Below, one piece after another: positions 30,868 to 59,587 of a stretch of 64,000 nucleotides of DNA. The notes under the pieces were generated by a model that ran no database searches, was not told where the DNA came from, and saw only the letters and a program-made list of their open reading frames with translations. Origin of the DNA: Nitrosopumilus sp. (GTDB lineage Archaea; Thermoproteota; Nitrososphaeria; Nitrososphaerales; Nitrosopumilaceae). The stretch is from assembly GCA_965204345.1 (NCBI GenBank), contig OZ241981.1, positions 1,974,536 to 2,038,535 of the forward strand, in the 5' to 3' direction. A program made the position numbers and the translations under genes. Position 1 is the first letter of the stretch. Every line of letters starts with the position of its first letter.

Positions 30868-31086
30868 ATGTTCATAGATGGCATCAGGATTCTTTTATTT
30901 GAGAGTGTATTGATTTCATTATTAATTTTTGTCTGTTCGGAATTTATTTTATTATGTTATTTTGAAACCGTGTGGCAGGTTGTTGGATTGTTAATGGCAC
31001 TGTTCATATCATCATCAATCTTGCAGGCAATATTTTTGCTCATCGTATATGTTATGATTTATAAAAAAACAAAAAAAGAGATCTGA
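30868..31086 (+). CDS. Small two-TM membrane protein; its 3' part is the left boundary of the repeat array
   Basis: 72-aa hydrophobic ORF; sequence from 31004 onward recurs in every repeat unit. Confidence 0.6.
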   Translation: MFIDGIRILLFESVLISLLIFVCSEFILLCYFETVWQVVGLLMALFISSSILQAIFLLIVYVMIYKKTKKEI

Positions 31087-31101
31087 TAGGGTGAGAGATA
31101 G

Positions 31102-31854
31102 ATGGCCTATACTAAAATAATGTCTTGTTTTGTGATGGTCTGGTTTGTTGTCGTTGTTATTAGCATTATTGTTGTTCAACCCAGTTATGCGAATCTTCAA
31201 GATAATCTGATAGGAGGCAGTGATTTTGAAAAGTTAAAAATTCTTGAATATGACAAGAATCGCTTTGGCCTGTTTGGCTCTGATCAGTTAAAATGGATCA
31301 TAAACTGGAATGGTGAGAGTTGGCAAGAGGAAACCCTGTTTGTTCAAGCAAGTAGCACTGCGTCCAAAATAACGTTTCTTGCCAGTGGAACTGACCGTCT
31401 TCATTTGGATGATATTGCACTGTCAAAAACATCGCTTGGGAAAAATTCAAACGAGTTTGCATTGGATTTAATTCCTCAAAAAAGAGCTATTACAAACGAG
31501 CAAGATGCGCCGTTTCTGCTTGAGATAAACCCGATCTCTTTGGATTCCACCTCTGCTGCTGCCACTCCCATGATACAACTAGACGTTGTTTATGATCAAA
31601 ATGATTTCAAAGAAATATCCGTAAATCCCGACAGCGGGATTCCCCCATTCAAATCAGTCATTTTGGTCCATCCAGCACAAACTTCTGGAATAAAAAACTT
31701 CACCATACTTTCGCAGGATAGTCTTGATAATAATGTACAGGTTGTGGGAACCGTTGAAATACAAGAACCAAAAAACACATTTCTCTGGAATTTAATCATT
31801 GGCATACTGACAATTTTATTGGCATTGGGACTGTTCAAAGTAATCAAGAAATAA
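31102..31854 (+). CDS. 250-aa exported protein with C-terminal TM anchor, copy 1 (VVYDQ allele)
   Basis: N-terminal signal peptide (...QPSYA), C-terminal hydrophobic helix plus FKVIKK. Confidence 0.8.
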   Translation: MAYTKIMSCFVMVWFVVVVISIIVVQPSYANLQDNLIGGSDFEKLKILEYDKNRFGLFGSDQLKWIINWNGESWQEETLFVQASSTASKITFLASGTDRLHLDDIALSKTSLGKNSNEFALDLIPQKRAITNEQDAPFLLEINPISLDSTSAAATPMIQLDVVYDQNDFKEISVNPDSGIPPFKSVILVHPAQTSGIKNFTILSQDSLDNNVQVVGTVEIQEPKNTFLWNLIIGILTILLALGLFKVIKK

Positions 31855-31887
31855 AAATTCTTCTGTATTGGCAGCGCGTACTGCTGT

Positions 31888-34506
31888 CTATGTTTTCACT
31901 TTGAATAAGGCAGCTTCACCTTCTCTAATGACTAATTGCAATTGAGGATTATCCTCAAAGAGGGCTATTCGTTCAGAAGTACTTATGTGAAGAGCTGGAA
32001 ATACTGGTAGAAGCTGGTTCACATCCGATTGTTGTCTGTCTTGCGGATCACCGCCAGTAATTAACACATATTCAATACCATACTTGTCCAATATTTCCAT
32101 CATTTTCATGTCTCCGGGATGGTGTAATACAAGGTTAGCCTCATATGCTCTCTCTTTTAGAAATGTATCATCTAACACAACACTACTGTGTATTCTTCTC
32201 CACATTTCTCTGTTATTAGTTATATCAAATATCTTTATTGATGAAAGCCACATTCCTTCACCAGTTCTATCCTCAAGGATGGTTGTATTTGAATCAAGAT
32301 TGTCATTCATCCAACCCATCACTTTTAATTCATTGCTTGTAGGTAAATATCCTAGCAAATTATCTTTATACTCGTATGAAATATGAGTATCAAGACTTGG
32401 AGTTAGTGCAATAAAAACCAACGAGTAAATCGCTATGGACAAGACTGATTTTGAACGTAATGAAATTTCGCGTTTGTTAAACCTAGTTGCAAGTTTATCA
32501 AAAATATCAACCCCTGCTAAAATTATTCCTATTTGAGAGATGATAGCTCCTAGTAAAACAAGTCTGTCAGGATACATAAACCAGAAAAGATTCTCGTAAA
32601 TTACTTTATTTGATATTGTTCCAAACACTAGGGAAAACATTACAATCAAAAATAAACTAAACTCTCGATTGGATTTAAACAACCAAATTGCAGAAAGAAC
32701 CCCCCCTAGTAATAAAATAAAATAAGGAAAATATATAGAATCCATGTTGTATATGTCTGCATCCTCTAATAATAGCCAAAAATAGTCGATAAGAATATTA
32801 TTTATCTTCTGCAATTCATCTGCAAAATAAACCAGTGATGCGCCTGATGTTACTACCAAAATAATTAACGCCAATCGTAAAATAAGCATATAGTTTTTTA
32901 TCTTAAATTTCCCGACTCGCAGTCCATTTGTTTTGGAGTTTATGGGGGATTTTAAGAGTATTAATTTAATAATTATAAACAAAACAAAGGGAACGATCAT
33001 GATAGTATATGTGATAAATATTACAACTGACAATAGCGAATAAATAATAAAATTAGAATTATTTTTATTATTAATAACTATGCTGATAAAAAGCAAAAGT
33101 ATGCAAGTAAATGTAGCAAATACAAAAGTTCCTGTAGATAATGGAGTAAGTAGTACATCATGAGAAATTACAAAATAACCTACTTCATTTCCTGGAATAA
33201 AAAACAATGCTCCAAATGCAATGCTTGCCAAGTAATACGATTTGGTTTTTTTGTATATTATTGAAAAACAGATGGGCGGCAAGAGTGCAACAATTGTTAC
33301 TGTGACGGCATATTGGGATATTGGCAGCATGACGTTTGTAATCAAAGAAAAAAATGCAGTCAAAGCATGAAATCCCTGAGGATAAACTGTCATTCCATAT
33401 GGCAAATCAAAAAATGGCCAATTATTGTTAAACACACTCGTATGATACATTATAAATTGCGAAGCGTGACCATGGTATTGCGAATCAAAAACAGGCGGCC
33501 AGTTCATATTTTCTGCAATTATAAAAAAGTGAGTCAGTGACAGAATTATGAGTATGCCTGCAATCAGATTTGGAAGAACTTTTTCATTTTTAATTTCAGA
33601 CAGAATTTTAGCTCTGTCTCTGAAAATCAAGTAAGAGCCAACCATCATAAACGAAAAGAAGGCTGTCAGAACAGTAGTCTGTGTAAAGTGAAGCATTGCC
33701 AGAAAAATCGCCAAAAGAATCAGCAATACCAAGCCAAAGGCAGAGTACAGGGAAAAATTAATTACAAATCCAAAATTCAGCTTGTATCGGATAATTTTTA
33801 ATAGAAAATACCCCATAATAACTGAAGACGACAAATAAACAATCATGGATGTCAGTATCTCGTTTTTAAAATTCGACCTGTCTGAACCTATTTTGCTGTC
33901 AAATAATTCAGGCACTACCTCTGCATCTGTAATGAGCGTGGTCTGGGAATAAGAGTCCCCTCCGTTTACAAATGTAATTCTAAGAGACTTGACATTGCCA
34001 GGATCAAAGCCAGGTTTATTTTGAACGTAATTGGAGGGATCTACAATAACTTTTGCCCAAGTGCCATCTTCTAAACCAAACCACTGTGGCAAATTCCAAA
34101 AAGGACGCTGTATATCATTTGCATCAACCATGATCAAAAATGCATTAGCCCTCCATGCTTCATGAGTACTTTTATTTATTCCAGCCACATTTTCAAGATT
34201 CATCCAAAATCGTAATCCTTGGCCCGTAGACAGATCCACAGGCTTGGAAAAACGGCACTCAAGAACTGCTGTTTCTGTGGCATCACTGCTGGAAAAATAA
34301 CTATAGGTAAAATCGCTATCATCATCATCATCATCACTATTCATATTCAGAGATTTGTCCAAAAAACTAGACTCTGAATCCCACGTACAGTTATTCTCAC
34401 TGTCAGACTCGAAAACATAAAAATCATGAAGATTTTCGGCAAATACAATTGATGGCAACGCACATAATACCAACAAAACAAGTGCTATCCCACTAACAAG
34501 AAACAA
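31888..34506 (-). CDS. Polytopic membrane protein, putative carbohydrate-binding domain + GT-C-fold glycosyltransferase, copy L1
   Basis: Signal peptide; DLSTGQGLRFWM...FDPGNVKSLRITF (CBM11/galactose-binding-like); many TM helices; loop DxQYH and YPQGFH; PDR; C-terminal WMNDN...YGIEYVL domain. Family call is inferred from motifs. Confidence 0.7.
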   Translation of the reverse strand: MFLVSGIALVLLVLCALPSIVFAENLHDFYVFESDSENNCTWDSESSFLDKSLNMNSDDDDDDSDFTYSYFSSSDATETAVLECRFSKPVDLSTGQGLRFWMNLENVAGINKSTHEAWRANAFLIMVDANDIQRPFWNLPQWFGLEDGTWAKVIVDPSNYVQNKPGFDPGNVKSLRITFVNGGDSYSQTTLITDAEVVPELFDSKIGSDRSNFKNEILTSMIVYLSSSVIMGYFLLKIIRYKLNFGFVINFSLYSAFGLVLLILLAIFLAMLHFTQTTVLTAFFSFMMVGSYLIFRDRAKILSEIKNEKVLPNLIAGILIILSLTHFFIIAENMNWPPVFDSQYHGHASQFIMYHTSVFNNNWPFFDLPYGMTVYPQGFHALTAFFSLITNVMLPISQYAVTVTIVALLPPICFSIIYKKTKSYYLASIAFGALFFIPGNEVGYFVISHDVLLTPLSTGTFVFATFTCILLLFISIVINNKNNSNFIIYSLLSVVIFITYTIMIVPFVLFIIIKLILLKSPINSKTNGLRVGKFKIKNYMLILRLALIILVVTSGASLVYFADELQKINNILIDYFWLLLEDADIYNMDSIYFPYFILLLGGVLSAIWLFKSNREFSLFLIVMFSLVFGTISNKVIYENLFWFMYPDRLVLLGAIISQIGIILAGVDIFDKLATRFNKREISLRSKSVLSIAIYSLVFIALTPSLDTHISYEYKDNLLGYLPTSNELKVMGWMNDNLDSNTTILEDRTGEGMWLSSIKIFDITNNREMWRRIHSSVVLDDTFLKERAYEANLVLHHPGDMKMMEILDKYGIEYVLITGGDPQDRQQSDVNQLLPVFPALHISTSERIALFEDNPQLQLVIREGEAALFKVKT

Positions 34507-34710
34507 CAGATTCTAAAATTTTCTTGTTTATTTATCTTTTCTTTATAAGATTAGGAATTTTGTTTTTTAATAAAAAATTACGTGGAAGATTTTTGATTGT
34601 CAATAGCATGGGTCATATCATCATCAATCTTGCAGGCAATATTTTTGCTCATCGTATATGTTATGATTTATAAAAAAACAAAAAAAGAGATCTGATAGGG
34701 TGAGAGATAG

Positions 34711-35463
34711 ATGGCCTATACTAAAATAATGTCTTGTTTTGTGATGGTCTGGTTTGTTGTCGTTGTTATTAGCATTATTGTTGTTCAACCCAGTTATGCG
34801 AATCTTCAAGATAATCTGATAGGAGGCAGTGATTTTGAAAAGTTAAAAATTCTTGAATATGACAAGAATCGCTTTGGCCTGTTTGGCTCTGATCAGTTAA
34901 AATGGATCATAAACTGGAATGGTGAGAGTTGGCAAGAGGAAACCCTGTTTGTTCAAGCAAGTAGCACTGCGTCCAAAATAACGTTTCTTGCCAGTGGAAC
35001 TGACCGTCTTCATTTGGATGATATTGCACTGTCAAAAACATCGCTTGGGAAAAATTCAAACGAGTTTGCATTGGATTTAATTCCTCAAAAAAGAGCTATT
35101 ACAAACGAGCAAGATGCGCCGTTTCTGCTTGAGATAAACCCGATCTCTTTGGATTCCACCTCTGCTGCTGCCACTCCCATGATACAACTAGACGTTGTTT
35201 ATGAGCAAAATGATTTCAAAGAAATATCCGTAAATCCCGACAGCGGGATTCCCCCATTCAAATCAGTCATTTTGGTCCATCCAGCACAAACTTCTGGAAT
35301 AAAAAACTTCACCATACTTTCGCAGGATAGTCTTGATAATAATGTACAGGTTGTGGGAACCGTTGAAATACAAGAACCAAAAAACACATTTCTCTGGAAT
35401 TTAATCATTGGCATACTGACAATTTTATTGGCATTGGGACTGTTCAAAGTAATCAAGAAATAA
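34711..35463 (+). CDS. 250-aa exported anchored protein, copy 2 (VVYEQ allele)
   Basis: Identical to copy 1 except one D/E change. Confidence 0.8.
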   Translation: MAYTKIMSCFVMVWFVVVVISIIVVQPSYANLQDNLIGGSDFEKLKILEYDKNRFGLFGSDQLKWIINWNGESWQEETLFVQASSTASKITFLASGTDRLHLDDIALSKTSLGKNSNEFALDLIPQKRAITNEQDAPFLLEINPISLDSTSAAATPMIQLDVVYEQNDFKEISVNPDSGIPPFKSVILVHPAQTSGIKNFTILSQDSLDNNVQVVGTVEIQEPKNTFLWNLIIGILTILLALGLFKVIKK

Positions 35464-35496
35464 AAATTCTTCTGTATTGGCAGCGCGTACTGCTGT

Positions 35497-38115
35497 CTAT
35501 GTTTTCACTTTGAATAAGGCAGCTTCACCTTCTCTAATGACTAATTGCAATTGAGGATTATCCTCAAAGAGGGCTATTCGTTCAGAAGTACTTATGTGAA
35601 GAGCTGGAAATACTGGTAGAAGATAGTACACACTAGAGGGGTGTCTGTCTTGCGTATAACCGCCAGTAATCAACACATATTCAATACCATACTTGTCCAA
35701 TATTTCCATCATTTTCATGTCTCCGGGATGGTGTAATACAAGGTTAGCCTCATATGCTCTCTCTTTTAGAAATGTATCATCTAACACAACACTACTGTGT
35801 ATTTTTCTCCACATTTCTCTGTTATTAGTTATATCAAATATCTTTATTGATGAAAGCCACATTCCTTCAGTAGTTCTATCCTGAAGGATGGTTGTATTTG
35901 AATCAAGATTGTCATTCATCCAACCCATCACTTTTAATTCATTGCTTGTAGGTAAATATCCTAGCAAACCATCGTCATACTCGTATGAAATATGAGTATC
36001 AAGACTTGGAATTAGTGCAATAAAAACCAACGAGCAAATCGCTATGGACAAGACTGATTTTGAACGTAATGAAATTTCGCGTTTGTTAAACCTAGTTGCA
36101 AGTTTATCAAAAATATCAACCCCTGCTAAAATTATTCCTATTTGAGAGATGATAGCTCCTAGTAAAACAAGTCTGTCAGGATACATAAACCAGAAAAGAT
36201 TTTCAAAAATTACTTTATTTGATATTGTTCCAAACACTAGGGAAAACATTACAATCAAAAATAAACTAAACTCTCGATTGGATTTAAACAACCAAGTTGC
36301 AGAAAGAACCCCCCCTAGTAATAAAATAAAATAAGGAAAATATATAGAATCTATGTTGTATATGTCCATCTCTTCGAATAATAGCCAAAAATAGTCGATA
36401 GGAAGATTATGTTTCTTCTGCAATTCATCTGCAAAATAAACCAGTGATGCGCCTGATGTTACTACCAAAATAATTAACGCCAATCGTAAAATAAGCATAT
36501 AGTTTTTTATCTTAAATTTCCCGACTCGCAGTCCATTTGTTTTGGAGTTTATGGGGGATTTTAAGAGTATTAATTTAATAATTATAAACAAAACAAAGGG
36601 AACGATCATGATAGTATATGTGATAAATATTACAACTGACAATAGCGAATAAATAATAAAATTAGAATTATTTTTATTATTAATAACTATGCTGATAAAA
36701 AGCAAAAGTATGCAAGTAAATGTAGCAAATACAAAAGTTCCTGTAGAGAATATAGTAAGTAGTACATCATGAGAAATTACAAAATAACCTAATTCATTTC
36801 CTGGAATAAAAAACAATGCTCCAAATGCAATGCTTGCCAAGTAATACGATTTGGTTTTTTTGTATATTATTGAAAAACAGATGGGCGGCAAGAGTGCAAC
36901 AATTGTTACTGTGACGGCATATTGGGATATTGGCAGCATGACGTTTGTAATCAAAGAAAAAAATGCAGTCAAAGCATGAAATCCCTGAGGATAAACTGTC
37001 ATTCCATATGGCAAATCAAAAAATGGCCAATTATTGTTAAACACACTCGTATGATACATTATAAATTGCGAAGCGTGACCATGGTATTGCGGATCAAAAA
37101 CAGGCGGCCAGTTCATATTTTCTGCAATTATAAAAAAGTGAGTCAGTGACAGAATTATGAGTATGCCTGCAATCAGATTTGGAAGAACTTTTTCATTTTT
37201 AATTTCAGACAGAATTTTAGCTCTGTCTCTGAAAATCAAGTAAGAGCCAACCATCATAAACGAAAAGAAGGCTGTCAGAACAGTAGTCTGTGTAAAGTGA
37301 AGCATTGCCAGAAAAATCGCCAAAAGAATCAGCAATACCAAGCCAAAGGCAGAGTACAGGGAAAAATTAATTACAAATCCAAAATTCAGCTTGTATCGGA
37401 TAATTTTTAATAGAAAATACCCCATAATAACTGAAGACGACAAATAAACAATCATGGATGTCAGTATCTCGTTTTTAAAATTCGACCTGTCTGAACCTAT
37501 TTTGCTGTCAAATAATCCAGGCACTACCTCTGCATCTGTAATGAGCGTGGTCTGGGAATAAGAGTCCCCTCCGTTTACAAATGTAATTCTAAGAGACTTG
37601 ACATTGCCAGGATCAAAGCCAGGTTTATTTTGAACGTAATTGGAGGGATCTACAATAACTTTTGCCCAAGTGCCATCTTCTAAACCAAACCACTGTGGCA
37701 AATTCCAAAAAGGACGCTGTATATCATTTGCATCAACCATGATCAAAAATGCATTAGCCCTCCATGCTTCATGAGTACTTTTATTTATTCCAGCCACATT
37801 TTCAAGATTCATCCAAAATCGTAATCCTTGGCCCGTAGACAGATCCACAGGCTTGGAAAAACGGCACTCAAGAACTGCTGTTTCTGTGGCATCACTGCTG
37901 GAAAAATAACTATAGGTAAAATCGCTATCATCATCATCATCATCACTATTCATATTCAGAGATTTGTCCAAAAAACTAGACTCTGAATCCCACGTACAGT
38001 TATTCTCACTGTCAGACTCGAAAACATAAAAATCATGAAGATTTTCGGCAAATACAATTGATGGCAACGCACATAATACCAACAAAACAAGTGCTATCCC
38101 ACTAACAAGAAACAA
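35497..38115 (-). CDS. Putative CBM + GT-C membrane glycosyltransferase, copy L2
   Basis: 872 aa; variant segments KKHNLPIDYF, DDGLL, QDRTTEG, GYTQDRHPSSVYY. Confidence 0.7.
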   Translation of the reverse strand: MFLVSGIALVLLVLCALPSIVFAENLHDFYVFESDSENNCTWDSESSFLDKSLNMNSDDDDDDSDFTYSYFSSSDATETAVLECRFSKPVDLSTGQGLRFWMNLENVAGINKSTHEAWRANAFLIMVDANDIQRPFWNLPQWFGLEDGTWAKVIVDPSNYVQNKPGFDPGNVKSLRITFVNGGDSYSQTTLITDAEVVPGLFDSKIGSDRSNFKNEILTSMIVYLSSSVIMGYFLLKIIRYKLNFGFVINFSLYSAFGLVLLILLAIFLAMLHFTQTTVLTAFFSFMMVGSYLIFRDRAKILSEIKNEKVLPNLIAGILIILSLTHFFIIAENMNWPPVFDPQYHGHASQFIMYHTSVFNNNWPFFDLPYGMTVYPQGFHALTAFFSLITNVMLPISQYAVTVTIVALLPPICFSIIYKKTKSYYLASIAFGALFFIPGNELGYFVISHDVLLTIFSTGTFVFATFTCILLLFISIVINNKNNSNFIIYSLLSVVIFITYTIMIVPFVLFIIIKLILLKSPINSKTNGLRVGKFKIKNYMLILRLALIILVVTSGASLVYFADELQKKHNLPIDYFWLLFEEMDIYNIDSIYFPYFILLLGGVLSATWLFKSNREFSLFLIVMFSLVFGTISNKVIFENLFWFMYPDRLVLLGAIISQIGIILAGVDIFDKLATRFNKREISLRSKSVLSIAICSLVFIALIPSLDTHISYEYDDGLLGYLPTSNELKVMGWMNDNLDSNTTILQDRTTEGMWLSSIKIFDITNNREMWRKIHSSVVLDDTFLKERAYEANLVLHHPGDMKMMEILDKYGIEYVLITGGYTQDRHPSSVYYLLPVFPALHISTSERIALFEDNPQLQLVIREGEAALFKVKT

Positions 38116-38319
38116 CAGATTCTAAAATTTTCTTGTTTATTTATCTTTTCTTTATAAGATTAGGAATTTTGTTTTTTAATAAAAAATTACGTGGAAGATT
38201 TTTGATTGTCAATAGCATGGGTCATATCATCATCAATCTTGCAGGCAATATTTTTGCTCATCGTATATGTTATGATTTATAAAAAAACAAAAAAAGAGAT
38301 CTGATAGGGTGAGAGATAG

Positions 38320-39072
38320 ATGGCCTATACTAAAATAATGTCTTGTTTTGTGATGGTCTGGTTTGTTGTCGTTGTTATTAGCATTATTGTTGTTCAACCC
38401 AGTTATGCGAATCTTCAAGATAATCTGATAGGAGGCAGTGATTTTGAAAAGTTAAAAATTCTTGAATATGACAAGAATCGCTTTGGCCTGTTTGGCTCTG
38501 ATCAGTTAAAATGGATCATAAACTGGAATGGTGAGAGTTGGCAAGAGGAAACCCTGTTTGTTCAAGCAAGTAGCACTGCGTCCAAAATAACGTTTCTTGC
38601 CAGTGGAACTGACCGTCTTCATTTGGATGATATTGCACTGTCAAAAACATCGCTTGGGAAAAATTCAAACGAGTTTGCATTGGATTTAATTCCTCAAAAA
38701 AGAGCTATTACAAACGAGCAAGATGCGCCGTTTCTGCTTGAGATAAACCCGATCTCTTTGGATTCCACCTCTGCTGCTGCCACTCCCATGATACAACTAG
38801 ACGTTGTTTATGATCAAAATGATTTCAAAGAAATATCCGTAAATCCCGACAGCGGGATTCCCCCATTCAAATCAGTCATTTTGGTCCATCCAGCACAAAC
38901 TTCTGGAATAAAAAACTTCACCATACTTTCGCAGGATAGTCTTGATAATAATGTACAGGTTGTGGGAACCGTTGAAATACAAGAACCAAAAAACACATTT
39001 CTCTGGAATTTAATCATTGGCATACTGACAATTTTATTGGCATTGGGACTGTTCAAAGTAATCAAGAAATAA
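38320..39072 (+). CDS. 250-aa exported anchored protein, copy 3 (VVYDQ allele)
   Basis: Protein identical to copy 1. Confidence 0.8.
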   Translation: MAYTKIMSCFVMVWFVVVVISIIVVQPSYANLQDNLIGGSDFEKLKILEYDKNRFGLFGSDQLKWIINWNGESWQEETLFVQASSTASKITFLASGTDRLHLDDIALSKTSLGKNSNEFALDLIPQKRAITNEQDAPFLLEINPISLDSTSAAATPMIQLDVVYDQNDFKEISVNPDSGIPPFKSVILVHPAQTSGIKNFTILSQDSLDNNVQVVGTVEIQEPKNTFLWNLIIGILTILLALGLFKVIKK

Positions 39073-39105
39073 AAATTCTTCTGTATTGGCAGCGCGTACT
39101 GCTGT

Positions 39106-41724: not shown

Positions 41725-41918
41725 CAGATTCTAAAATTTTCTTGTTTATTTATCTTTTCTTTATAAGATTAGGAATTTTGTTTTTTAATAAAAAATTACG
41801 TGGAAGATTTTTGATTGTCAATAGCATGGGTCATATCATCATCAATCTTGCAGGCAATATTTTTGCTCATCGTATATGTTATGATTTATTAAAAACAGAG
41901 TTAGCTAATCTCATAAAG

Positions 41919-42236: not shown

Positions 42237-42278
42237 TCATAACAAAAAAGTAAATAAACAAGAAAATTTTAGAATCTG

Positions 42279-44969: not shown

Positions 44970-45002
44970 ACAGCAGTACGCGCTGCCAATACAGAAGAAT
45001 TT

Positions 45003-48578: not shown

Positions 48579-48611
48579 ACAGCAGTACGCGCTGCCAATA
48601 CAGAAGAATTT

Positions 48612-49364: not shown

Positions 49365-49568
49365 CTATCTCTCACCCTATCAGATCTCTTTTTTTGTTTT
49401 TTTATAAATCATAACATATACGATGAGCAAAAATATTGCCTGCAAGATTGATGATGATATGACCCATGCTATTGACAATCAAAAATCTTCCACGTAATTT
49501 TTTATTAAAAAACAAAATTCCTAATCTTATAAAGAAAAGATAAATAAACAAGAAAATTTTAGAATCTG

Positions 49569-52187
49569 TTGTTTCTTGTTAGTGGGATAGCACTTGTTTT
49601 GTTGGTATTATGTGCGTTGCCATCAATTGTATTTGCCGAAAATCTTCATGATTTTTATGTTTTCGAGTCTGACAGTGAGAATAACTGTACGTGGGATTCA
49701 GAGTCTAGTTTTTTGGACAAATCTCTGAATATGAATAGTGATGATGATGATGATGATAGCGATTTTACCTATAGTTATTTTTCCAGCAGTGATGCCACAG
49801 AAACAGCAGTTCTTGAGTGCCGTTTTTCCAAGCCTGTGGATCTGTCTACGGGCCAAGGATTACGATTTTGGATGAATCTTGAAAATGTGGCTGGAATAAA
49901 TAAAAGTACTCATGAAGCATGGAGGGCTAATGCATTTTTGATCATGGTTGATGCAAATGATATACAGCGTCCTTTTTGGAATTTGCCACAGTGGTTTGGT
50001 TTAGAAGATGGCACTTGGGCAAAAGTTATTGTAGATCCCTCCAATTACGTTCAAAATAAACCTGGCTTTGATCCTGGCAATGTCAAGTCTCTTAGAATTA
50101 CATTTGTAAACGGAGGGGACTCTTATTCCCAGACCACGCTCATTACAGATGCAGAGGTAGTGCCTGGATTATTTGACAGCAAAATAGGTTCAGACAGGTC
50201 GAATTTTAAAAACGAGATACTGACATCCATGATTGTTTATTTGTCGTCTTCAGTTATTATGGGGTATTTTCTATTAAAAATTATCCGATACAAGCTGAAT
50301 TTTGGATTTGTAATTAATTTTTCCCTGTACTCTGCCTTTGGCTTGGTATTGCTGATTCTTTTGGCGATTTTTCTGGCAATGCTTCACTTTACACAGACTA
50401 CTGTTCTGACAGCCTTCTTTTCGTTTATGATGGTTGGCTCTTACTTGATTTTCAGAGACAGAGCTAAAATTCTGTCTGAAATTAAAAATGAAAAAGTTCT
50501 TCCAAATCTGATTGCAGGCATACTCATAATTCTGTCACTGACTCACTTTTTTATAATTGCAGAAAATATGAACTGGCCGCCTGTTGTTGATCCGCAATAC
50601 CATGGTCACGCTTCGCAATTTATAATGTATCATACGAGTGTGTTTAACAATAATTGGCCATTTTTTGATTTGCCATATGGAATGACAGTTTATCCTCAGG
50701 GATTTCATGCTTTGACTGCATTTTTTTCTTTGATTACAAACGTCATGCTGCCAATATCCCAATATGCCGTCACAGTAACAATTGTTGCACTCTTGCCGCC
50801 CATCTGTTTTTCAATAATATACAAAAAAACCAAATCGTATTACTTGGCAAGCATTGCATTTGGAGCATTGTTTTTTATTCCAGGAAATGAAGTAGGTTAT
50901 TTTGTAATTTCTCATGATGTACTACTTACTATATTCTCTACAGGAACTTTTGTATTTGCTACATTTACTTGCATACTTTTGCTTTTTATCAGCATAGTTA
51001 TTAATAATAAAAATAATTCTAATTTTATTATTTATTCGCTATTGTCAGTTGTAATATTTATCACATATACTATCATGATCGTTCCCTTTGTTTTGTTTAT
51101 AATTATTAAATTAATACTCTTAAAATCCCCCATAAACTCCAAAACAAATGGACTGCGAGTCGGGAAATTTAAGATAAAAAACTATATGCTTATTTTACGA
51201 TTGGCGTTAATTATTTTGGTAGTAACATCAGGCGCATCACTGGTTTATTTTGCAGATGAATTGCAGAAGAAACATAATCTTGATATCGACTATGTTTGGC
51301 TATTATTCGAAGAGATGGACATATACAACATAGATTCTATATATTTTCCTTATTTTATTTTATTACTAGGGGGGGTTCTTTCTGCAATTTGGTTGTTTAA
51401 ATCCAATCTAGAGTTTAGTTTATTTTTGATTGTAATGTTTTCCCTAGTGTTTGGAATAATATCAAATAAAGTAATTTTTGAAAATCTTTTCTGGTTTATG
51501 TATCCTGACAGACTTGTTTTACTAGGAGCTATCATCTCTCAAATAGGAATAATTTTAGCAGGGGTTGATATTTTTGATAAACTTGTAACTAGGTTTAACA
51601 AACGCAAAATTTCATTACGTTCAAAATCAGTCTTGTCCATAGCGATTTGCTCGTTGGTTTTTATTGCACTAATTCCAAGTCTTGATACTCATATTTCATA
51701 CGAGTATGACGATGATTTGCTAGGATATTTACCTACAAGCAATGAATTAAAAGTGATGGGTTGGATGAATGACAATCTTGATTCAAATACAACCATCCTT
51801 GAGGATAGAACTGGTGAAGGAATGTGGCTTTCATCAATAAAGATATTTGATATAACTAATAACAGAGAAATGTGGAGAAAAATACACAGTAGTGTTGTGT
51901 TAGATGATACATTTCTAAAAGAGAGAGCATATGAGGCTAACCTTGTATTACACCATCCCGGAGACATGAAAATGATGGAAATATTGGACAAGTATGGTAT
52001 TGAATATGTGTTGATTACAGGCGGTAATCCGAGAGACAGACAACAATCGGATGTGTACCAGCTTCTACCAGTATTTCCAGCTCTTCACATAAGTACTTCT
52101 GAACGAATAGCCCTCTTTGAGGATAATCCTCAATTGCAATTAGTCATTAGAGAAGGTGAAGCTGCCTTATTCAAAGTGAAAACATAG
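49569..52187 (+). CDS. Putative CBM + GT-C membrane glycosyltransferase, copy R3
   Basis: 872 aa; PVVDPQ, DIDYVW, KLVTRFNKRK, NPRDRQQSDVYQ. Confidence 0.7.
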   Translation: MFLVSGIALVLLVLCALPSIVFAENLHDFYVFESDSENNCTWDSESSFLDKSLNMNSDDDDDDSDFTYSYFSSSDATETAVLECRFSKPVDLSTGQGLRFWMNLENVAGINKSTHEAWRANAFLIMVDANDIQRPFWNLPQWFGLEDGTWAKVIVDPSNYVQNKPGFDPGNVKSLRITFVNGGDSYSQTTLITDAEVVPGLFDSKIGSDRSNFKNEILTSMIVYLSSSVIMGYFLLKIIRYKLNFGFVINFSLYSAFGLVLLILLAIFLAMLHFTQTTVLTAFFSFMMVGSYLIFRDRAKILSEIKNEKVLPNLIAGILIILSLTHFFIIAENMNWPPVVDPQYHGHASQFIMYHTSVFNNNWPFFDLPYGMTVYPQGFHALTAFFSLITNVMLPISQYAVTVTIVALLPPICFSIIYKKTKSYYLASIAFGALFFIPGNEVGYFVISHDVLLTIFSTGTFVFATFTCILLLFISIVINNKNNSNFIIYSLLSVVIFITYTIMIVPFVLFIIIKLILLKSPINSKTNGLRVGKFKIKNYMLILRLALIILVVTSGASLVYFADELQKKHNLDIDYVWLLFEEMDIYNIDSIYFPYFILLLGGVLSAIWLFKSNLEFSLFLIVMFSLVFGIISNKVIFENLFWFMYPDRLVLLGAIISQIGIILAGVDIFDKLVTRFNKRKISLRSKSVLSIAICSLVFIALIPSLDTHISYEYDDDLLGYLPTSNELKVMGWMNDNLDSNTTILEDRTGEGMWLSSIKIFDITNNREMWRKIHSSVVLDDTFLKERAYEANLVLHHPGDMKMMEILDKYGIEYVLITGGNPRDRQQSDVYQLLPVFPALHISTSERIALFEDNPQLQLVIREGEAALFKVKT

Positions 52188-52220
52188 ACAGCAGTACGCG
52201 CTGCCAATACAGAAGAATTT

Positions 52221-52973
52221 TTATTTCTTGATTACTTTGAACAGTCCCAATGCCAATAAAATTGTCAGTATGCCAATGATTAAATTCCAGAGAAATGTGT
52301 TTTTTGGTTCTTGTATTTCAACGGTTCCCACAACCTGTACATTATTATCAAGACTATCCTGCGAAAGTATGGTGAAGTTTTTTATTCCAGAAGTTTGTGC
52401 TGGATGGACCAAAATGACTGATTTGAATGGGGGAATCCCGCTGTCGGGATTTACGGATATTTCTTTGAAATCATTTTGCTCATAAACAACGTCTAGTTGT
52501 ATCATGGGAGTGGCAGCAGCAGAGGTGGAATCCAAAGAGATCGGGTTTATCTCAAGCAGAAACGGCGCATCTTGCTCGTTTGTAATAGCTCTTTTTTGAG
52601 GAATTAAATCCAATGCAAACTCGTTTGAATTTTTCCCAAGCGATGTTTTTGACAGTGCAATATCATCCAAATGAAGACGGTCAGTTCCACTGGCAAGAAA
52701 CGTTATTTTGGACGCAGTGCTACTTGCTTGAACAAACAGGGTTTCCTCTTGCCAACTCTCACCATTCCAGTTTATGATCCATTTTAACTGATCAGAGCCA
52801 AACAGGCCAAAGCGATTCTTGTCATATTCAAGAATTTTTAACTTTTCAAAATCACTGCCTCCTATCAGATTATCTTGAAGATTCGCATAACTGGGTTGAA
52901 CAACAATAATGCTAATAACAACGACAACAAACCAGACCATCACAAAACAAGACATTATTTTAGTATAGGCCAT
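52221..52973 (-). CDS. 250-aa exported anchored protein, copy 6 (VVYEQ allele)
   Basis: Protein identical to copy 2. Confidence 0.8.
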   Translation of the reverse strand: MAYTKIMSCFVMVWFVVVVISIIVVQPSYANLQDNLIGGSDFEKLKILEYDKNRFGLFGSDQLKWIINWNGESWQEETLFVQASSTASKITFLASGTDRLHLDDIALSKTSLGKNSNEFALDLIPQKRAITNEQDAPFLLEINPISLDSTSAAATPMIQLDVVYEQNDFKEISVNPDSGIPPFKSVILVHPAQTSGIKNFTILSQDSLDNNVQVVGTVEIQEPKNTFLWNLIIGILTILLALGLFKVIKK

Positions 52974-53177
52974 CTATCTCTCACCCTATCAGATCTCTTT
53001 TTTTGTTTTTTTATAAATCATAACATATACGATGAGCAAAAATATTGCCTGCAAGATTGATGATGATATGACCCATGCTATTGACAATCAAAAATCTTCC
53101 ACGTAATTTTTTATTAAAAAACAAAATTCCTAATCTTATAAAGAAAAGATAAATAAACAAGAAAATTTTAGAATCTG

Positions 53178-55796
53178 TTGTTTCTTGTTAGTGGGATAGC
53201 ACTTGTTTTGTTGGTATTATGTGCGTTGCCATCAATTGTATTTGCCGAAAATCTTCATGATTTTTATGTTTTCGAGTCTGACAGTGAGAATAACTGTACG
53301 TGGGATTCAGAGTCTAGTTTTTTGGACAAATCTCTGAATATGAATAGTGATGATGATGATGATGATAGCGATTTTACCTATAGTTATTTTTCCAGCAGTG
53401 ATGCCACAGAAACAGCAGTTCTTGAGTGCCGTTTTTCCAAGCCTGTGGATCTGTCTACGGGCCAAGGATTACGATTTTGGATGAATCTTGAAAATGTGGC
53501 TGGAATAAATAAAAGTACTCATGAAGCATGGAGGGCTAATGCATTTTTGATCATGGTTGATGCAAATGATATACAGCGTCCTTTTTGGAATTTGCCACAG
53601 TGGTTTGGTTTAGAAGATGGCACTTGGGCAAAAGTTATTGTAGATCCCTCCAATTACGTTCAAAATAAACCTGGCTTTGATCCTGGCAATGTCAAGTCTC
53701 TTAGAATTACATTTGTAAACGGAGGGGACTCTTATTCCCAGACCACGCTCATTACAGATGCAGAGGTAGTGCCTGGATTATTTGACAGCAAAATAGGTTC
53801 AGACAGGTCGAATTTTAAAAACGAGATACTGACATCCATGATTGTTTATTTGTCGTCTTCAGTTATTATGGGGTATTTTCTATTAAAAATTATCCGATAC
53901 AAGCTGAATTTTGGATTTGTAATTAATTTTTCCCTGTACTCTGCCTTTGGCTTGGTATTGCTGATTCTTTTGGCGATTTTTCTGGCAATGCTTCACTTTA
54001 CACAGACTACTGTTCTGACAGCCTTCTTTTCGTTTATGATGGTTGGCTCTTACTTGATTTTCAGAGACAGAGCTAAAATTCTGTCTGAAATTAAAAATGA
54101 AAAAGTTCTTCCAAATCTGATTGCAGGCATACTCATAATTCTGTCACTGACTCACTTTTTTATAATTGCAGAAAATATGAACTGGCCGCCTGTTGTTGAT
54201 CCGCAATACCATGGTCACGCTTCGCAATTTATAATGTATCATACGAGTGTGTTTAACAATAATTGGCCATTTTTTGATTTGCCATATGGAATGACAGTTT
54301 ATCCTCAGGGATTTCATGCTTTGACTGCATTTTTTTCTTTGATTACAAACGTCATGCTGCCAATATCCCAATATGCCGTCACAGTAACAATTGTTGCACT
54401 CTTGCCGCCCATCTGTTTTTCAATAATATACAAAAAAACCAAATCGTATTACTTGGCAAGCATTGCATTTGGAGCATTGTTTTTTATTCCAGGAAATGAA
54501 GTAGGTTATTTTGTAATTTCTCATGATGTACTACTTACTATATTCTCTACAGGAACTTTTGTATTTGCTACATTTACTTGCATACTTTTGCTTTTTATCA
54601 GCATAGTTATTAATAATAAAAATAATTCTAATTTTATTATTTATTCGCTATTGTCAGTTGTAATATTTATCACATATACTATCATGATCGTTCCCTTTGT
54701 TTTGTTTATAATTATTAAATTAATACTCTTAAAATCCCCCATAAACTCCAAAACAAATGGACTGCGAGTCGGGAAATTTAAGATAAAAAACTATATGCTT
54801 ATTTTACGATTGGCGTTAATTATTTTGGTAGTAACATCAGGCGCATCACTGGTTTATTTTGCAGATGAATTGCAGAAGAAACATAATCTTGATATCGACT
54901 ATGTTTGGCTATTATTCGAAGAGATGGACATATACAACATAGATTCTATATATTTTCCTTATTTTATTTTATTACTAGGGGGGGTTCTTTCTGCAATTTG
55001 GTTGTTTAAATCCAATCTAGAGTTTAGTTTATTTTTGATTGTAATGTTTTCCCTAGTGTTTGGAATAATATCAAATAAAGTAATTTTTGAAAATCTTTTC
55101 TGGTTTATGTATCCTGACAGACTTGTTTTACTAGGAGCTATCATCTCTCAAATAGGAATAATTTTAGCAGGGGTTGATATTTTTGATAAACTTGTAACTA
55201 GGTTTAACAAACGCAAAATTTCATTACGTTCAAAATCAGTCTTGTCCATAGCGATTTGCTCGTTGGTTTTTATTGCACTAATTCCAAGTCTTGATACTCA
55301 TATTTCATACGAGTATGACGATGATTTGCTAGGATATTTACCTACAAGCAATGAATTAAAAGTGATGGGTTGGATGAATGACAATCTTGATTCAAATACA
55401 ACCATCCTTGAGGATAGAACTGGTGAAGGAATGTGGCTTTCATCAATAAAGATATTTGATATAACTAATAACAGAGAAATGTGGAGAAAAATACACAGTA
55501 GTGTTGTGTTAGATGATACATTTCTAAAAGAGAGAGCATATGAGGCTAACCTTGTATTACACCATCCCGGAGACATGAAAATGATGGAAATATTGGACAA
55601 GTATGGTATTGAATATGTGTTGATTACAGGCGGTAATCCGAGAGACAGACAACAATCGGATGTGTACCAGCTTCTACCAGTATTTCCAGCTCTTCACATA
55701 AGTACTTCTGAACGAATAGCCCTCTTTGAGGATAATCCTCAATTGCAATTAGTCATTAGAGAAGGTGAAGCTGCCTTATTCAAAGTGAAAACATAG
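53178..55796 (+). CDS. Putative CBM + GT-C membrane glycosyltransferase, copy R4
   Basis: Protein appears identical to R3. Confidence 0.65.
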   Translation: MFLVSGIALVLLVLCALPSIVFAENLHDFYVFESDSENNCTWDSESSFLDKSLNMNSDDDDDDSDFTYSYFSSSDATETAVLECRFSKPVDLSTGQGLRFWMNLENVAGINKSTHEAWRANAFLIMVDANDIQRPFWNLPQWFGLEDGTWAKVIVDPSNYVQNKPGFDPGNVKSLRITFVNGGDSYSQTTLITDAEVVPGLFDSKIGSDRSNFKNEILTSMIVYLSSSVIMGYFLLKIIRYKLNFGFVINFSLYSAFGLVLLILLAIFLAMLHFTQTTVLTAFFSFMMVGSYLIFRDRAKILSEIKNEKVLPNLIAGILIILSLTHFFIIAENMNWPPVVDPQYHGHASQFIMYHTSVFNNNWPFFDLPYGMTVYPQGFHALTAFFSLITNVMLPISQYAVTVTIVALLPPICFSIIYKKTKSYYLASIAFGALFFIPGNEVGYFVISHDVLLTIFSTGTFVFATFTCILLLFISIVINNKNNSNFIIYSLLSVVIFITYTIMIVPFVLFIIIKLILLKSPINSKTNGLRVGKFKIKNYMLILRLALIILVVTSGASLVYFADELQKKHNLDIDYVWLLFEEMDIYNIDSIYFPYFILLLGGVLSAIWLFKSNLEFSLFLIVMFSLVFGIISNKVIFENLFWFMYPDRLVLLGAIISQIGIILAGVDIFDKLVTRFNKRKISLRSKSVLSIAICSLVFIALIPSLDTHISYEYDDDLLGYLPTSNELKVMGWMNDNLDSNTTILEDRTGEGMWLSSIKIFDITNNREMWRKIHSSVVLDDTFLKERAYEANLVLHHPGDMKMMEILDKYGIEYVLITGGNPRDRQQSDVYQLLPVFPALHISTSERIALFEDNPQLQLVIREGEAALFKVKT

Positions 55797-55829
55797 ACAG
55801 CAGTACGCGCTGCCAATACAGAAGAATTT

Positions 55830-56582
55830 TTATTTCTTGATTACTTTGAACAGTCCCAATGCCAATAAAATTGTCAGTATGCCAATGATTAAATTCCAGA
55901 GAAATGTGTTTTTTGGTTCTTGTATTTCAACGGTTCCCACAACCTGTACATTATTATCAAGACTATCCTGCGAAAGTATGGTGAAGTTTTTTATTCCAGA
56001 AGTTTGTGCTGGATGGACCAAAATGACTGATTTGAATGGGGGAATCCCGCTGTCGGGATTTACGGATATTTCTTTGAAATCATTTTGCTCATAAACAACG
56101 TCTAGTTGTATCATGGGAGTGGCAGCAGCAGAGGTGGAATCCAAAGAGATCGGGTTTATCTCAAGCAGAAACGGCGCATCTTGCTCGTTTGTAATAGCTC
56201 TTTTTTGAGGAATTAAATCCAATGCAAACTCGTTTGAATTTTTCCCAAGCGATGTTTTTGACAGTGCAATATCATCCAAATGAAGACGGTCAGTTCCACT
56301 GGCAAGAAACGTTATTTTGGACGCAGTGCTACTTGCTTGAACAAACAGGGTTTCCTCTTGCCAACTCTCACCATTCCAGTTTATGATCCATTTTAACTGA
56401 TCAGAGCCAAACAGGCCAAAGCGATTCTTGTCATATTCAAGAATTTTTAACTTTTCAAAATCACTGCCTCCTATCAGATTATCTTGAAGATTCGCATAAC
56501 TGGGTTGAACAACAATAATGCTAATAACAACGACAACAAACCAGACCATCACAAAACAAGACATTATTTTAGTATAGGCCAT
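55830..56582 (-). CDS. 250-aa exported anchored protein, copy 7 (VVYEQ allele)
   Basis: Protein identical to copy 2. Confidence 0.8.
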   Translation of the reverse strand: MAYTKIMSCFVMVWFVVVVISIIVVQPSYANLQDNLIGGSDFEKLKILEYDKNRFGLFGSDQLKWIINWNGESWQEETLFVQASSTASKITFLASGTDRLHLDDIALSKTSLGKNSNEFALDLIPQKRAITNEQDAPFLLEINPISLDSTSAAATPMIQLDVVYEQNDFKEISVNPDSGIPPFKSVILVHPAQTSGIKNFTILSQDSLDNNVQVVGTVEIQEPKNTFLWNLIIGILTILLALGLFKVIKK

Positions 56583-56786
56583 CTATCTCTCACCCTATCA
56601 GATCTCTTTTTTTGTTTTTTTATAAATCATAACATATACGATGAGCAAAAATATTGCCTGCAAGATTGATGATGATATGACCCATGCTATTGACAATCAA
56701 AAATCTTCCACGTAATTTTTTATTAAAAAACAAAATTCCTAATCTTATAAAGAAAAGATAAATAAACAAGAAAATTTTAGAATCTG

Positions 56787-59405
56787 TTGTTTCTTGTTAG
56801 TGGGATAGCACTTGTTTTGTTGGTATTATGTGCGTTGCCATCAATTGTATTTGCCGAAAATCTTCATGATTTTTATGTTTTCGAGTCTGACAGTGAGAAT
56901 AACTGTACGTGGGATTCAGAGTCTAGTTTTTTGGACAAATCTCTGAATATGAATAGTGATGATGATGATGATGATAGCGATTTTACCTATAGTTATTTTT
57001 CCAGCAGTGATGCCACAGAAACAGCAGTTCTTGAGTGCCGTTTTTCCAAGCCTGTGGATCTGTCTACGGGCCAAGGATTACGATTTTGGATGAATCTTGA
57101 AAATGTGGCTGGAATAAATAAAAGTACTCCTGAAGCATGGAGGGCTAATGCATTTTTGATCATGGTTGATGCAAATGATATACAGCGTCCTTTTTGGAAT
57201 TTGCCACAGTGGTTTGGTTTAGAAGATGGCACTTGGGCAAAAGTTATTGTAGATCCCTCCAATTACGCTCTAAATAAACCTGGCTTTGATCCTGGCAATG
57301 TCAAGTCTCTTAGAATTACATTTGTAAACGGAGGGGACTCTTATTCCCAGACCACGCTCATTACAGATGCAGAGGTAGTGCCTGGATTATTTGACAGCAA
57401 AATAGGTTCAGACAGGTCGAATTTTAAAAACGAGATACTGACATCCATGATTGTTTATTTGTCGTCTTCAGTTATTATGGGGTATTTTCTATTAAAAATT
57501 ATCCGATACAAGCTGAATTTTGGATTTGTAATTAATTTTTCCCTGTACTCTGCCTTTGGCTTGGTATTGCTGATTCTTTTGGCGATTTTTCTGGCAATGC
57601 TTCACTTTACACAGACTACTGTTCTGACAGCCTTCTTTTCGTTTATGATGGTTGGCTCTTACTTGATTTTCAGAGACAGAGCTAAAATTCTGTCTGAAAT
57701 TAAAAATGAAAAAGTTCTTCCAAATCTGATTGCAGGCATACTCATAATTCTGTCACTGATTCACTTTTTTATAATTGCAGAAAATATGAGATGGCCGCCT
57801 GTTATTGATCCGCAATACCATGGTCACGCTTCGCAATTTATAATGTATCATACGAGTGTGTTTAACAATAATTGGCCATTTTTTGATTTGCCATATGGAA
57901 TGACAGTTTATCCTCAGGGATTTCATGCTTTGACTGCATTTTTTTCTTTGATTACAAACGTCATGCTGCCAATATCCCAATATGCCGTCACAGCAACAAT
58001 TGTTGCACTCTTGCCGCCCATCTGTTTTTCAATAATATACAAAAAAACCAAATCGTATTACTTGGCAAGCATTGCATTTGGAGCATTGTTTTTTATTCCA
58101 GGAAATGAAGTAGGTTATTTTGTAATTTCTCATGATGTACTACTTACTCCATTATCTACAGGAACTTTTGTATTTGCTACATTTACTTGCATACTTTTGC
58201 TTTTTATCAGCATAGTTATTAATAATAAAAATAATTCTAATTTTATTATTTATTCGCTATTGTCAGTTGTAATATTTATCACATATACTATCATGATCGT
58301 TCCCTTTGTTTTGTTTATAATTATTAAATTAATACTCTTAAAATCCCCCATAAACTCCAAAACAAATGGACTGCGAGTCGGGAAATTTAAGATAAAAAAC
58401 TATATGCTTATTTTACGATTGGCGTTAATTATTTTGGTAGTAACATCAGGCGCATCACTGGTTTATTTTGCAGATGAATTGCAGAAGATAAATAATCTTC
58501 TTATCGACTATTTTTGGCTATTATTCGAAGAGATGGACATATACAACATGGATTCTATATATTTTCCTTATTTTATTTTATTACTAGGGGGGGTTCTTTC
58601 TGCAATTTGGTTGTTTAAATCCAATCTAGAGTTTAGTTTATTTTTGATTGTAATGTTTTCCCTAGTGTTTGGAATAATATCAAATAAAGTAATTTACGAG
58701 AATCTTTTCTGGTTTATGTATCCTGACAGACTTGTTTTACTAGGAGCTATCATCTCTCAAATAGGAATAATTTTAGCAGGGGTTGATATTTTTGATAAAC
58801 TTGCAACTAGGTTTAACAAACGCGAAATTTCATTACGTTCAAAATCAGTCTTGTCCATAGCGATTTGCTCGTTGGTTTTTATTGCACTAATTCCAAGTCT
58901 TGATACTCATATTTCATACGAGTATGACGATGATTTGCTAGGATATTTACCTACAAGCAATGAATTAAAAGTGATGGGTTGGATGAATGACAATCTTGAT
59001 TCAAATACAACCATCCTTGAGGATAGAACTGGTGAAGGAATGTGGCTTTCATCAATAAAGATATTTGATATAACTAATAACAGAGAAATGTGGAGAAAAA
59101 TACACAGTAGTGTTGTGTTAGATGATACATTTCTAAAAGAGAGAGCATATGAGGCTAACCTTGTATTACACCATCCCGGAGACATGAAAATGATGGAAAT
59201 ATTGGACAAGTATGGTATTGAATATGTGTTAATTACAGGCGGTAATCCTCTAGACAGACAACAAGCGGGACGGCCACAGCTTCTACCAGTATTTCCAGCT
59301 CTTCACATAAGTACTTCTGAACGAATAGCCCTCTTTGAGGATAATCCTCAATTGCAATTAGTCATTAGAGAAGGTGAAGCTGCCTTATTCAAAGTGAAAA
59401 CATAG
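56787..59405 (+). CDS. Putative CBM + GT-C membrane glycosyltransferase, copy R5
   Basis: 872 aa; MRWPPVIDPQ, KINNLLIDYF, NPLDRQQAGRPQ. Confidence 0.7.
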   Translation: MFLVSGIALVLLVLCALPSIVFAENLHDFYVFESDSENNCTWDSESSFLDKSLNMNSDDDDDDSDFTYSYFSSSDATETAVLECRFSKPVDLSTGQGLRFWMNLENVAGINKSTPEAWRANAFLIMVDANDIQRPFWNLPQWFGLEDGTWAKVIVDPSNYALNKPGFDPGNVKSLRITFVNGGDSYSQTTLITDAEVVPGLFDSKIGSDRSNFKNEILTSMIVYLSSSVIMGYFLLKIIRYKLNFGFVINFSLYSAFGLVLLILLAIFLAMLHFTQTTVLTAFFSFMMVGSYLIFRDRAKILSEIKNEKVLPNLIAGILIILSLIHFFIIAENMRWPPVIDPQYHGHASQFIMYHTSVFNNNWPFFDLPYGMTVYPQGFHALTAFFSLITNVMLPISQYAVTATIVALLPPICFSIIYKKTKSYYLASIAFGALFFIPGNEVGYFVISHDVLLTPLSTGTFVFATFTCILLLFISIVINNKNNSNFIIYSLLSVVIFITYTIMIVPFVLFIIIKLILLKSPINSKTNGLRVGKFKIKNYMLILRLALIILVVTSGASLVYFADELQKINNLLIDYFWLLFEEMDIYNMDSIYFPYFILLLGGVLSAIWLFKSNLEFSLFLIVMFSLVFGIISNKVIYENLFWFMYPDRLVLLGAIISQIGIILAGVDIFDKLATRFNKREISLRSKSVLSIAICSLVFIALIPSLDTHISYEYDDDLLGYLPTSNELKVMGWMNDNLDSNTTILEDRTGEGMWLSSIKIFDITNNREMWRKIHSSVVLDDTFLKERAYEANLVLHHPGDMKMMEILDKYGIEYVLITGGNPLDRQQAGRPQLLPVFPALHISTSERIALFEDNPQLQLVIREGEAALFKVKT

Positions 59406-59438
59406 ACAGCAGTACGCGCTGCCAATACAGAAGAATTT

Positions 59439-59587
59439 TTATTTCTTGATTACTTTGAACAGTCCCAATGCCAATAAAATTGTCAGTATGCCAATGATTA
59501 AATTCCAGAGAAATGTGTTTTTTGGTTCTTGTATTTCAACGGTTCCCACAACCTGTACATTATTGTCACGATTATCATGCGAAAATA
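59439..59587 (-). pseudogene. 3' remnant of the 250-aa anchored protein
   Basis: Only the C-terminal ~49 codons remain; FSHDNRDNN is diverged from LSQDSLDNN, then homology stops. Confidence 0.8.

Follow-up and report, generated by a model that had tools for sequence, protein, structure and literature searches.

Opposed tandem arms of a predicted GT-C membrane protein gene, with divergence concentrated in its predicted outer parts, in a sponge-associated Nitrosopumilus

Introduction

Cassette systems of antigenic variation, of the vlsE, pilS and msp2 type, combine silent partial cassettes with one expression site, and the surface glycans of prokaryotes usually vary by the swapping of whole gene clusters. 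In Trypanosoma brucei, the accessible parts of two reports describe three STT3 paralogs (TbSTT3A, TbSTT3B and TbSTT3C) that differ in donor and acceptor specificity through residues close to the active site; when selected with lectins, these paralogs form chimeras (PMC5724017, PMC4351956). Peaks of divergence in genes undergoing conversion are a known signature of selection, according to the accessible part of PMC3924837, and marine ammonia-oxidising archaea carry flexible, strain-variable islands rich in glycosyltransferases, as described in the available text of 10.1101/2024.04.23.590705. This study concerns a 64,000-nucleotide stretch of a Nitrosopumilus sp. genome (GCA_965204345.1, contig OZ241981.1, positions 1,974,536 to 2,038,535; hereafter the window), in which a big gene of the DUF6541 family, encoding a predicted GT-C-fold membrane protein, is repeated in two opposed arms. 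The genome is of 2.12 Mb in 9 contigs and 99.7% complete. The host archaeon is sponge-associated, and the sequence-containing public runs that have a habitat label are mostly sponge or marine metagenomes.

Variation among the copies

The two arms have a period of 3609 bp and share 98.1–99.6% identity in long alignments (self-BLAST; Table 1). The initial annotation had described three units on one strand and five on the other, head-to-head, and this arrangement is present in the assembly. The eight large open reading frames (ORFs) it had called intact are all open, seven of 872 aa and one (R1) of 896 aa, and they amount to seven distinct proteins and seven distinct coding sequences (CDSs), R3 and R4 being identical. 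A two-gene unit repeated eight times holds for the big gene but not for the 250-aa small ORF, which is whole in seven cases, the right arm having four whole copies and a 3' stub (59439–59587). Outside the window there are three more big-gene copies (C1:1398059–1400749, 1403153–1405768 and 1437355–1439973), giving a genome total of 11 copies and 10 distinct proteins. The same alleles are present in public runs.

Among the eight window copies, 46 variable codons change the amino acid and four are silent only (binomial p 0.009); among all 11 copies the numbers are 80 and nine (binomial p 0.003). By way of control, 67 other near-identical gene pairs of the assembly hold 1229 changing and 1090 silent codons, and the highest ratio in pairs with at least 10 differences is 3.0, although these pairs are not independent. 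The variable sites are clustered along the gene (p 1e-4). With topology assigned by ourselves, in part from an AlphaFold2 (AF2) model, the predicted outer parts, 289 of 872 residues, contain 31 of the 46 changes in the window copies (Fisher p 1e-6) and 53 of the 80 in the full set (Fisher p 2e-10). Stretches with variable residues include 335–342, 442–458, 566–588, 714–716, 745–749, 770–778 and 820–831. The patches flank D341, D450/G459, position 583 and D746, and the consensus positions 340, 583 and 745 are themselves variable among the copies. No stop codon occurs at the 135 variable sites, an outcome seen in 0.2% of random simulations. A test of proximity to five 'key' residues was discarded, the keys having been chosen post hoc, one of them being unconserved, and clustering being ignored. 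Silent changes share the patches with the replacements, and pS (synonymous polymorphism per site) elsewhere in the gene is 0 to 0.001, so that the signature is one of divergence peaks in a homogenised gene and not a plain excess of replacements.

Recombination among the copies is indicated by Hudson–Kaplan minima (Rm) of 10 for the eight copies and 21 for the eleven, and by near sites being more compatible than distant ones (p 0.004 and p 0.0002). One tract in mirror register is almost identical to the left arm (Table 1), while other arm-to-arm registers differ by ~1%; this fits recent conversion or exchange between the arms, with reuse of reads by the assembler as the alternative. The Rm of 10 and this tract bear out the initial view of a repertoire of variants reshuffled by recombination.

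The encoded protein

Against the DUF6541 profile (PF20176) the big protein scored 53.7 bits, the curated cut-off being 29; the cut-off was exceeded by 9 of the 11 copies listed, the other two having been scored in part only. An AF2 model made from 83 sequences (predicted local distance difference test, pLDDT, 86; predicted template modelling score, pTM, 0.87) matched STT3, PglB, DPY19, AglB and AftA with Z 11–16 and root-mean-square deviations (rmsd) of 6–9, the best matches (STT3, PglB, DPY19 and AftA) having Z 12–16 and the values for STT3 being Z 16.2 and rmsd 6.8 over 461 aa, with Foldseek E down to 2e-7. Residues ~30–205 were modelled as a jelly roll like those of carbohydrate-binding modules CBM30 and CBM11 (Z 11–12). 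The protein is thus predicted to be polytopic, with a GT-C fold and an extracytoplasmic C-terminal domain. Among homologs, D341 (81/82), R648 (81/82) and D746 (75/82) are conserved, and all three are invariant in the 11 copies, a pattern that the catalytic loops of GT-C enzymes (PMC6801728) would lead one to expect, with an acidic residue in the first external loop and an Arg in a later short one; D341 and R648 may be the equivalents of D56 and R375 of PglB, judged by topology rather than by a residue-level overlay. Because of the predicted fold, an enzyme appears more likely than a receptor, so that of the 'enzyme or receptor' proposed at first the enzyme half is favoured and the receptor half has lost ground. 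It may be a membrane glycosyltransferase; enzymes of the GT-C superfamily transfer sugar from a polyprenyl-linked donor. Duplication of AglB was considered and rejected: the protein has neither WWDYG nor W-x-D-x-G, and an STT3 search returned three other loci and 0 of the 11 copies. The genome has a separate AglB at C1:1294587, and a single aglB is recorded for N. piranensis in the accessible part of PMC12153357.

The family of the big gene is lineage-restricted. There are 96 remote homologs, with no more than 31% identity over long alignments; an Atlas match scored 0.96 and the Atlas clusters are mostly archaeal, the taxonomic range resting on Atlas and one named locus. In the one relative genome examined, of a member of the Bathyarchaeota, the gene is single-copy and lies in a GT2/GT4/epimerase cluster. 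Clear homologs are absent from 300 other genomes of the same family, with one weak partial match (E 5e-4), and the 83-sequence profile gave weak partial matches in 11 of 150 other genomes of the genus, in frames of 650–757 aa that are taken to be AglB. The 5.8-billion search returned only this genome's own proteins, a JGI metagenome protein scan found none among 108 candidates, and phage records gave no match. A PDB sequence search gave nothing below E 0.5, and NCBIfam 0/5.

Alternative explanations

The explanation preferred here, in which our confidence is evenly balanced, is amplification and conversion under selection that retains variant loops in a surface glycosyltransferase. The DUF6541 gene would have reached its position in the window, flanked by a TPR gene and hemL, as a copy from a second glycosylation island of the genome, and head-to-tail amplification would have produced the two opposed arms. 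The 11 copies would be kept near-identical, and short patches shuffled among them, by unequal crossing-over and ectopic gene conversion. Where patches diverge, in the outer loops and the C-terminal domain, selection would preserve the differences; in GT-C enzymes these parts bind the acceptor and the lipid-linked donor. The copies may then be enzyme variants that alter the glycan of the surface through differences in specificity or activity. The architecture in the assembly, the mosaicism, the location of the patches in the sequence and the open frames are observed, and fold and topology are predicted; we infer the enzymatic activity, the substrate, the selection and the selective agent (recognition by viruses or by the sponge). 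More speculatively, and with doubt outweighing belief, the copies could form a repertoire resembling immune genes in an archaeal symbiont, in which copy number fluctuates, alleles of the active-site loops are shuffled within and between the palindromic arms, and variant glycans alter recognition by viruses or sponge.

Several observations weigh against the preferred explanation. The ratio of nonsynonymous to synonymous polymorphism (pN/pS) in the outer loops is 1.18 for eight copies and 0.98 for eleven (gene-wide 1.71 and 1.33), and a simple dN/dS test alone does not show positive selection, because the silent changes sit in the same loop patches; nor are the copies independent. That the patches line the active site is suggested by sequence adjacency and the assigned topology, and E581, tried as a catalytic residue, was dropped as it is not conserved in homologs. 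In one RNA run, the contig over the 5' half of the big gene is of the type of the outside copy X3. The junction of L3 with the central element, which resembles a miniature inverted-repeat transposable element (MITE), was not seen among the listed contig pieces of four runs (4 of 21 public runs were compared, over window positions 41800–45960, with 192 pieces outside the listing), nor in an exact search of JGI metagenomes (0 matches); in contigs, this missing junction and the RNA gaps (43746–44162 and the tandem junction) prove no absence. Finally, depth ratios suggest ~3–9 big copies in other samples rather than 11.

It is also conceivable, if unlikely, that the big protein is itself the target, a virus receptor or an antigen recognised by the host, and that outer-loop variation is escape with one unchanged activity. 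Changes strongly enriched in predicted outer parts are what would be expected, and extra copies could keep the function while loops change. However, the 187-aa N-terminal CBM-like domain, although more exposed than any other part, is not enriched and varies no more than the membrane helices do (5 and 7 sites), the exposed small protein is invariant, and the patches flank family-conserved residues, with variation at consensus positions.

Slightly less credible is dosage amplification (a gene accordion) or duplication driven by mobile elements, with relaxed selection and variation of no adaptive value. Both islands have many insertion sequence (IS) relics, MITEs and recent duplications, apparent copy number varies among samples, and a loop pN/pS near 1 agrees with neutrality. 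Drift, however, does not predict confinement to outer loops with pS ~0.001 elsewhere, or variable sites free of stops, and a passenger gene in the same repeat unit has only one variable base.

An expression site supplied from a cassette archive is improbable. Here X3, in an operon downstream of a dehydratase gene, would be expressed and the array would donate patches, as could be read from the X3-type RNA contig when the X3 allele is a minority in DNA (190 of 694 depth, run X2), and from the three upstream types found among the 11 copies. Yet all array copies are full-length and seven of eight share an intact upstream, with what we take to be a TATA-like word, and a contig of R1/R3/R4/R5 type is also present in the RNA run; the RNA evidence consists of one run, as unstranded contigs. 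A sigma-70 promoter scan was at chance level, that model being unsuited to archaea.

Just as improbable is that the exact 3+5 order was made in part by the assembler, by concatenating strain variants of a shorter array. The assembly does contain haplotigs: contigs C3, C5, C6, C7 and C8, five small contigs, are alternative haplotypes of C1 regions (flanks matching at 97–99.8%), showing a strain mixture in the source. R3 and R4 lie within an exact repeat of 5068 bp (48453–53520 versus +3609), and the low depth ratios and the centre junction, not found outside the assembly, point the same way. None of the listed contig pieces of the four runs carried the MITE alleles of the window itself. Against this, the big gene must lie on the minus strand at the left junction and on the plus strand at the right one, and both flanks are tied to one site, so that at least one head-to-head switch would be needed if a single molecule carries both flanks, as synteny indicates. 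Contigs span the tandem junction in all three DNA-type or untyped runs compared (runs X1, X2 and X3, from three studies), a loose end in the one RNA run compared (X14) is the right-end junction, which occurs once in the genome, and of 37 run differences checked, 34 are alleles among the 11 copies and the other three resolve with two listed indels. Big-copy estimates were 6.5, 6.2 and 8.9 by median single-copy contigs, and ~6, 5–6 and 3 with a flippase-type contig as yardstick, all of them rough ratios, and contig depth does not equal copy number. The internal ratios agree with those of the assembly: small/big 0.73–0.76 and junction/small 0.62–0.93, where the assembly gives 0.73 and 0.75. The comparison with single-copy depth proposed by the initial annotation roughly gives several copies, though fewer than the assembly's 11. 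Assembler error would alter the count and not the existence of the family: a multi-copy, tandem big-gene family is real and strain-variable, and as for the exact count of 3+5, it is either peculiar to the strain or in part a product of the assembler.

A diversity-generating retroelement or other templated mutagenesis is hardly credible, as multi-state codons in the C-terminal patch (aa 820–831) are outweighed by 0 matches to RVT_1 (one family model) in the 99.7%-complete genome, no template repeat for any of the four patches searched, A among the states at only 60–63% of variable sites, and patches spread along the gene.

Genomic context

The array, at first regarded as a locus standing alone, is a rearranged duplicate of the second glycosylation island, which is the native context of the big gene and has the order flippase, small gene, convergent big gene. 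The left junction and all six tandem junctions, the latter identical to one another, carry the decayed 3' end of the flippase of that island, where a 430-aa Polysacc_synt protein ends in C1:1397077–1397278. The right end is pieced together from the small-gene stub, a 115-bp fragment (presumably of a GDP-fucose-synthase-like gene), a truncated sulfotransferase and a 4.3-kb duplicate of C1:1432685–1436962. The sulfotransferase, GT4 and nucleotide-sugar genes do adjoin the array as initially annotated, but the sulfotransferase is shortened to 182 aa from 291. The duplicate runs on over the contig end, beyond which lie a gene that we take to be nucleotidyltransferase-like and hemL (C1:1927–3219). 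In 4 of 6 relatives hemL comes after the TPR gene in the stretch retrieved, and in two of these it is the next large ORF; the remaining two have other insertions after the TPR gene and no hemL within 20 kb. With hemL lying across the contig end here, the ~34-kb block has thus been inserted into a circular chromosome at a conserved site.

The centre of the array (41896–42232, 337 bp) had been described as a unique spacer of ~360 bp, but 318 bp of it is a dispersed element with 6 further near-full-length copies in the genome (89.6–92.5% identity). It is short and non-coding with imperfect terminal inverted repeats of ~36 bp, as in MITEs, and a related copy is directly upstream of the big gene at C1:1437355. 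Two of the three outside big copies are also head-to-head, around inverted transposase relics, presumably of the IS481 family.

The second island (C1:1395963–1446000) has further recent duplications: a near-perfect inverted repeat of 1702 bp that encloses two transposase relics; an exact tandem repeat of period 3598 bp, with what we take to be heptose-pathway-like genes; and 4.2 kb duplicated in inverted orientation, with a 719-aa STT3-like protein and a GDP-mannose dehydratase-like gene. At C1:1405900–1406370 a transposase relic contains an expanded trinucleotide run of ~65 His codons, against 2–8 in other copies.

The small gene is read as a near-invariant, internally deleted passenger, and the idea of a diversifying two-gene module did not survive. 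It has one variable base in 753 across eight copies. Its product has hydrophobic helices at both termini, and a JGI relative that is 80% identical to it contains ~120 aa that are missing here. A single-sequence model was unusable (pLDDT 41), neither the protein nor its longer relative matched Pfam, and an Atlas match to CBM_4_9 (0.78) is a lead only.

The 72-bp scar that makes R1 896 aa long consists of a ~37-bp imperfect duplication and a ~35-bp insert. It is common to R1 and the outside copy X1 (at C1:1400749), a sign of exchange between the two islands. The scar and the genome's CRISPR array have the same period. Isolated direct repeats are most numerous at period 72, with 21 matches (0–7 at other periods from 50 to 100), a count that includes CRISPR units, coding repeats and duplicated loci. 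Duplication-plus-insert scars of period 70–72, the CRISPR period, occur genome-wide on C1.

Elsewhere in the window, a 1022-aa ORF (384–3452) with a faint Ig-like match starts beside a period-75 repeat, and a DinB/Dpo4-type Y-family polymerase gene lies at 11664–12764. C1 also has a giant ORF of at least 4000 aa with 1.5-kb internal repeats of 97–99% identity (448243–459017), and giant surface-protein genes that are duplicated in inverted orientation over 14 kb at 97% identity (1759930–1774142 versus 1840443–1854616).

Table 1. Positions of the array and its flanking features in the window.
Feature	Position	Strand	Remarks
Left arm, three 3609-bp units	30972..41895	big ORF on -	self-BLAST
Right arm, five big ORFs	42233..59587	big ORF on +	self-BLAST
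L1 big gene, DUF6541, predicted GT-C fold, 872 aa	31888..34506	-	4 nt from L3
L2 big gene	35497..38115	-	4 nt from R2
L3 big gene	39106..41724	-	
R1 big gene, 896 aa	42279..44969	+	
R2 big gene	45960..48578	+	reference copy
R3 big gene	49569..52187	+	CDS identical to R4
R4 big gene	53178..55796	+	
R5 big gene	56787..59405	+	mosaic, own C-terminal loop allele
Mirror-register tract nearly identical to left arm	44839..50166	+	4 mismatches in 5328 bp
Small gene (250 aa), first of 7 whole copies	31102..31854	+	membrane-anchored, internally deleted
Further whole small-gene copies	34711, 38320; 45003, 48612, 52221, 55830	+ (first two); - (last four)	
72-bp in-frame insertion scar in R1	42851..42959	+	linker after CBM-like domain
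MITE-like element at head-to-head centre	41919..42236	.	imperfect terminal inverted repeats
TPR gene	29769..30590	-	conserved left anchor of island; Pfam TPR
Wzx-like flippase 3' remnant, left junction	30906..31101	+	91.7% to C1:1397077-1397278
Tandem junction	34507..34710	.	big-gene upstream fused to decayed flippase 3' end
Right junction	59439..59702	.	small-gene 3' stub, then 115-bp fragment from C1:1421954-1422068
Truncated sulfotransferase	59628..60176	-	~156 native aa + foreign tail
GT4, NDP-sugar epimerase, dehydratase genes	60376..63944	.	99.86% duplicate of second island

Comparison with known systems

Under the preferred explanation of selected loop variants, variation would lie inside one enzyme, with many alleles on one chromosome. 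If the variants differ in product, archaea would have a new way of varying their surface, and how sponge symbionts evade viruses or digestion by the host would become a question open to experiment. The ten natural variants point to residues that probably set the specificity of an uncharacterised GT-C family, and DUF6541 gains a first functional hypothesis. The literature searched, which mostly did not cover subscription journals, held no mention of DUF6541, and at title and abstract level no description of such an array in archaea was found, although supplements might list the genes as hypothetical proteins. The same literature held no description of conversion-related divergence peaks in an archaeal membrane enzyme.

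The big protein is like the DUF6541 proteins of Bathyarchaeota in its profile match and glycosylation-cluster context, and unlike them in sharing at most 31% identity and in having 11 copies, against one in the relative genome checked. With STT3/AglB/PglB, DPY19 and AftA it shares the predicted fold and outer C-terminal domain, together with a Pro-x-Arg loop and a conserved Asp that follows the first core helix, as given for GT-C enzymes in the accessible part of PMC6801728. It differs from them in its 10–15% identity, in lacking WWDYG, and in its extra N-terminal CBM-like domain and helices. The glycosyltransferase-rich islands of marine ammonia-oxidising archaea vary by gene content, whereas in the present case amplification and patchwise variation affect a single gene; in the available text of 10.1101/2024.04.23.590705 the strings 'duplicat' and 'paralog' have 0 occurrences. 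A homogenised background with local peaks of divergence is a feature shared with opsins and with families of the MHC and R-gene type (accessible part of PMC3924837).

As regards the vlsE, pilS and msp2 type, all copies here are full-length, and a weak RNA bias towards X3 comes from one run. The trypanosome STT3 paralog set is, by analogy, the closest working analogue. Both genomes carry several GT-C paralogs, but TbSTT3A, TbSTT3B and TbSTT3C are three true oligosaccharyltransferases of a eukaryote with proven activity, whereas the present set has 11 archaeal copies of an uncharacterised family, eight of them in opposed arms.

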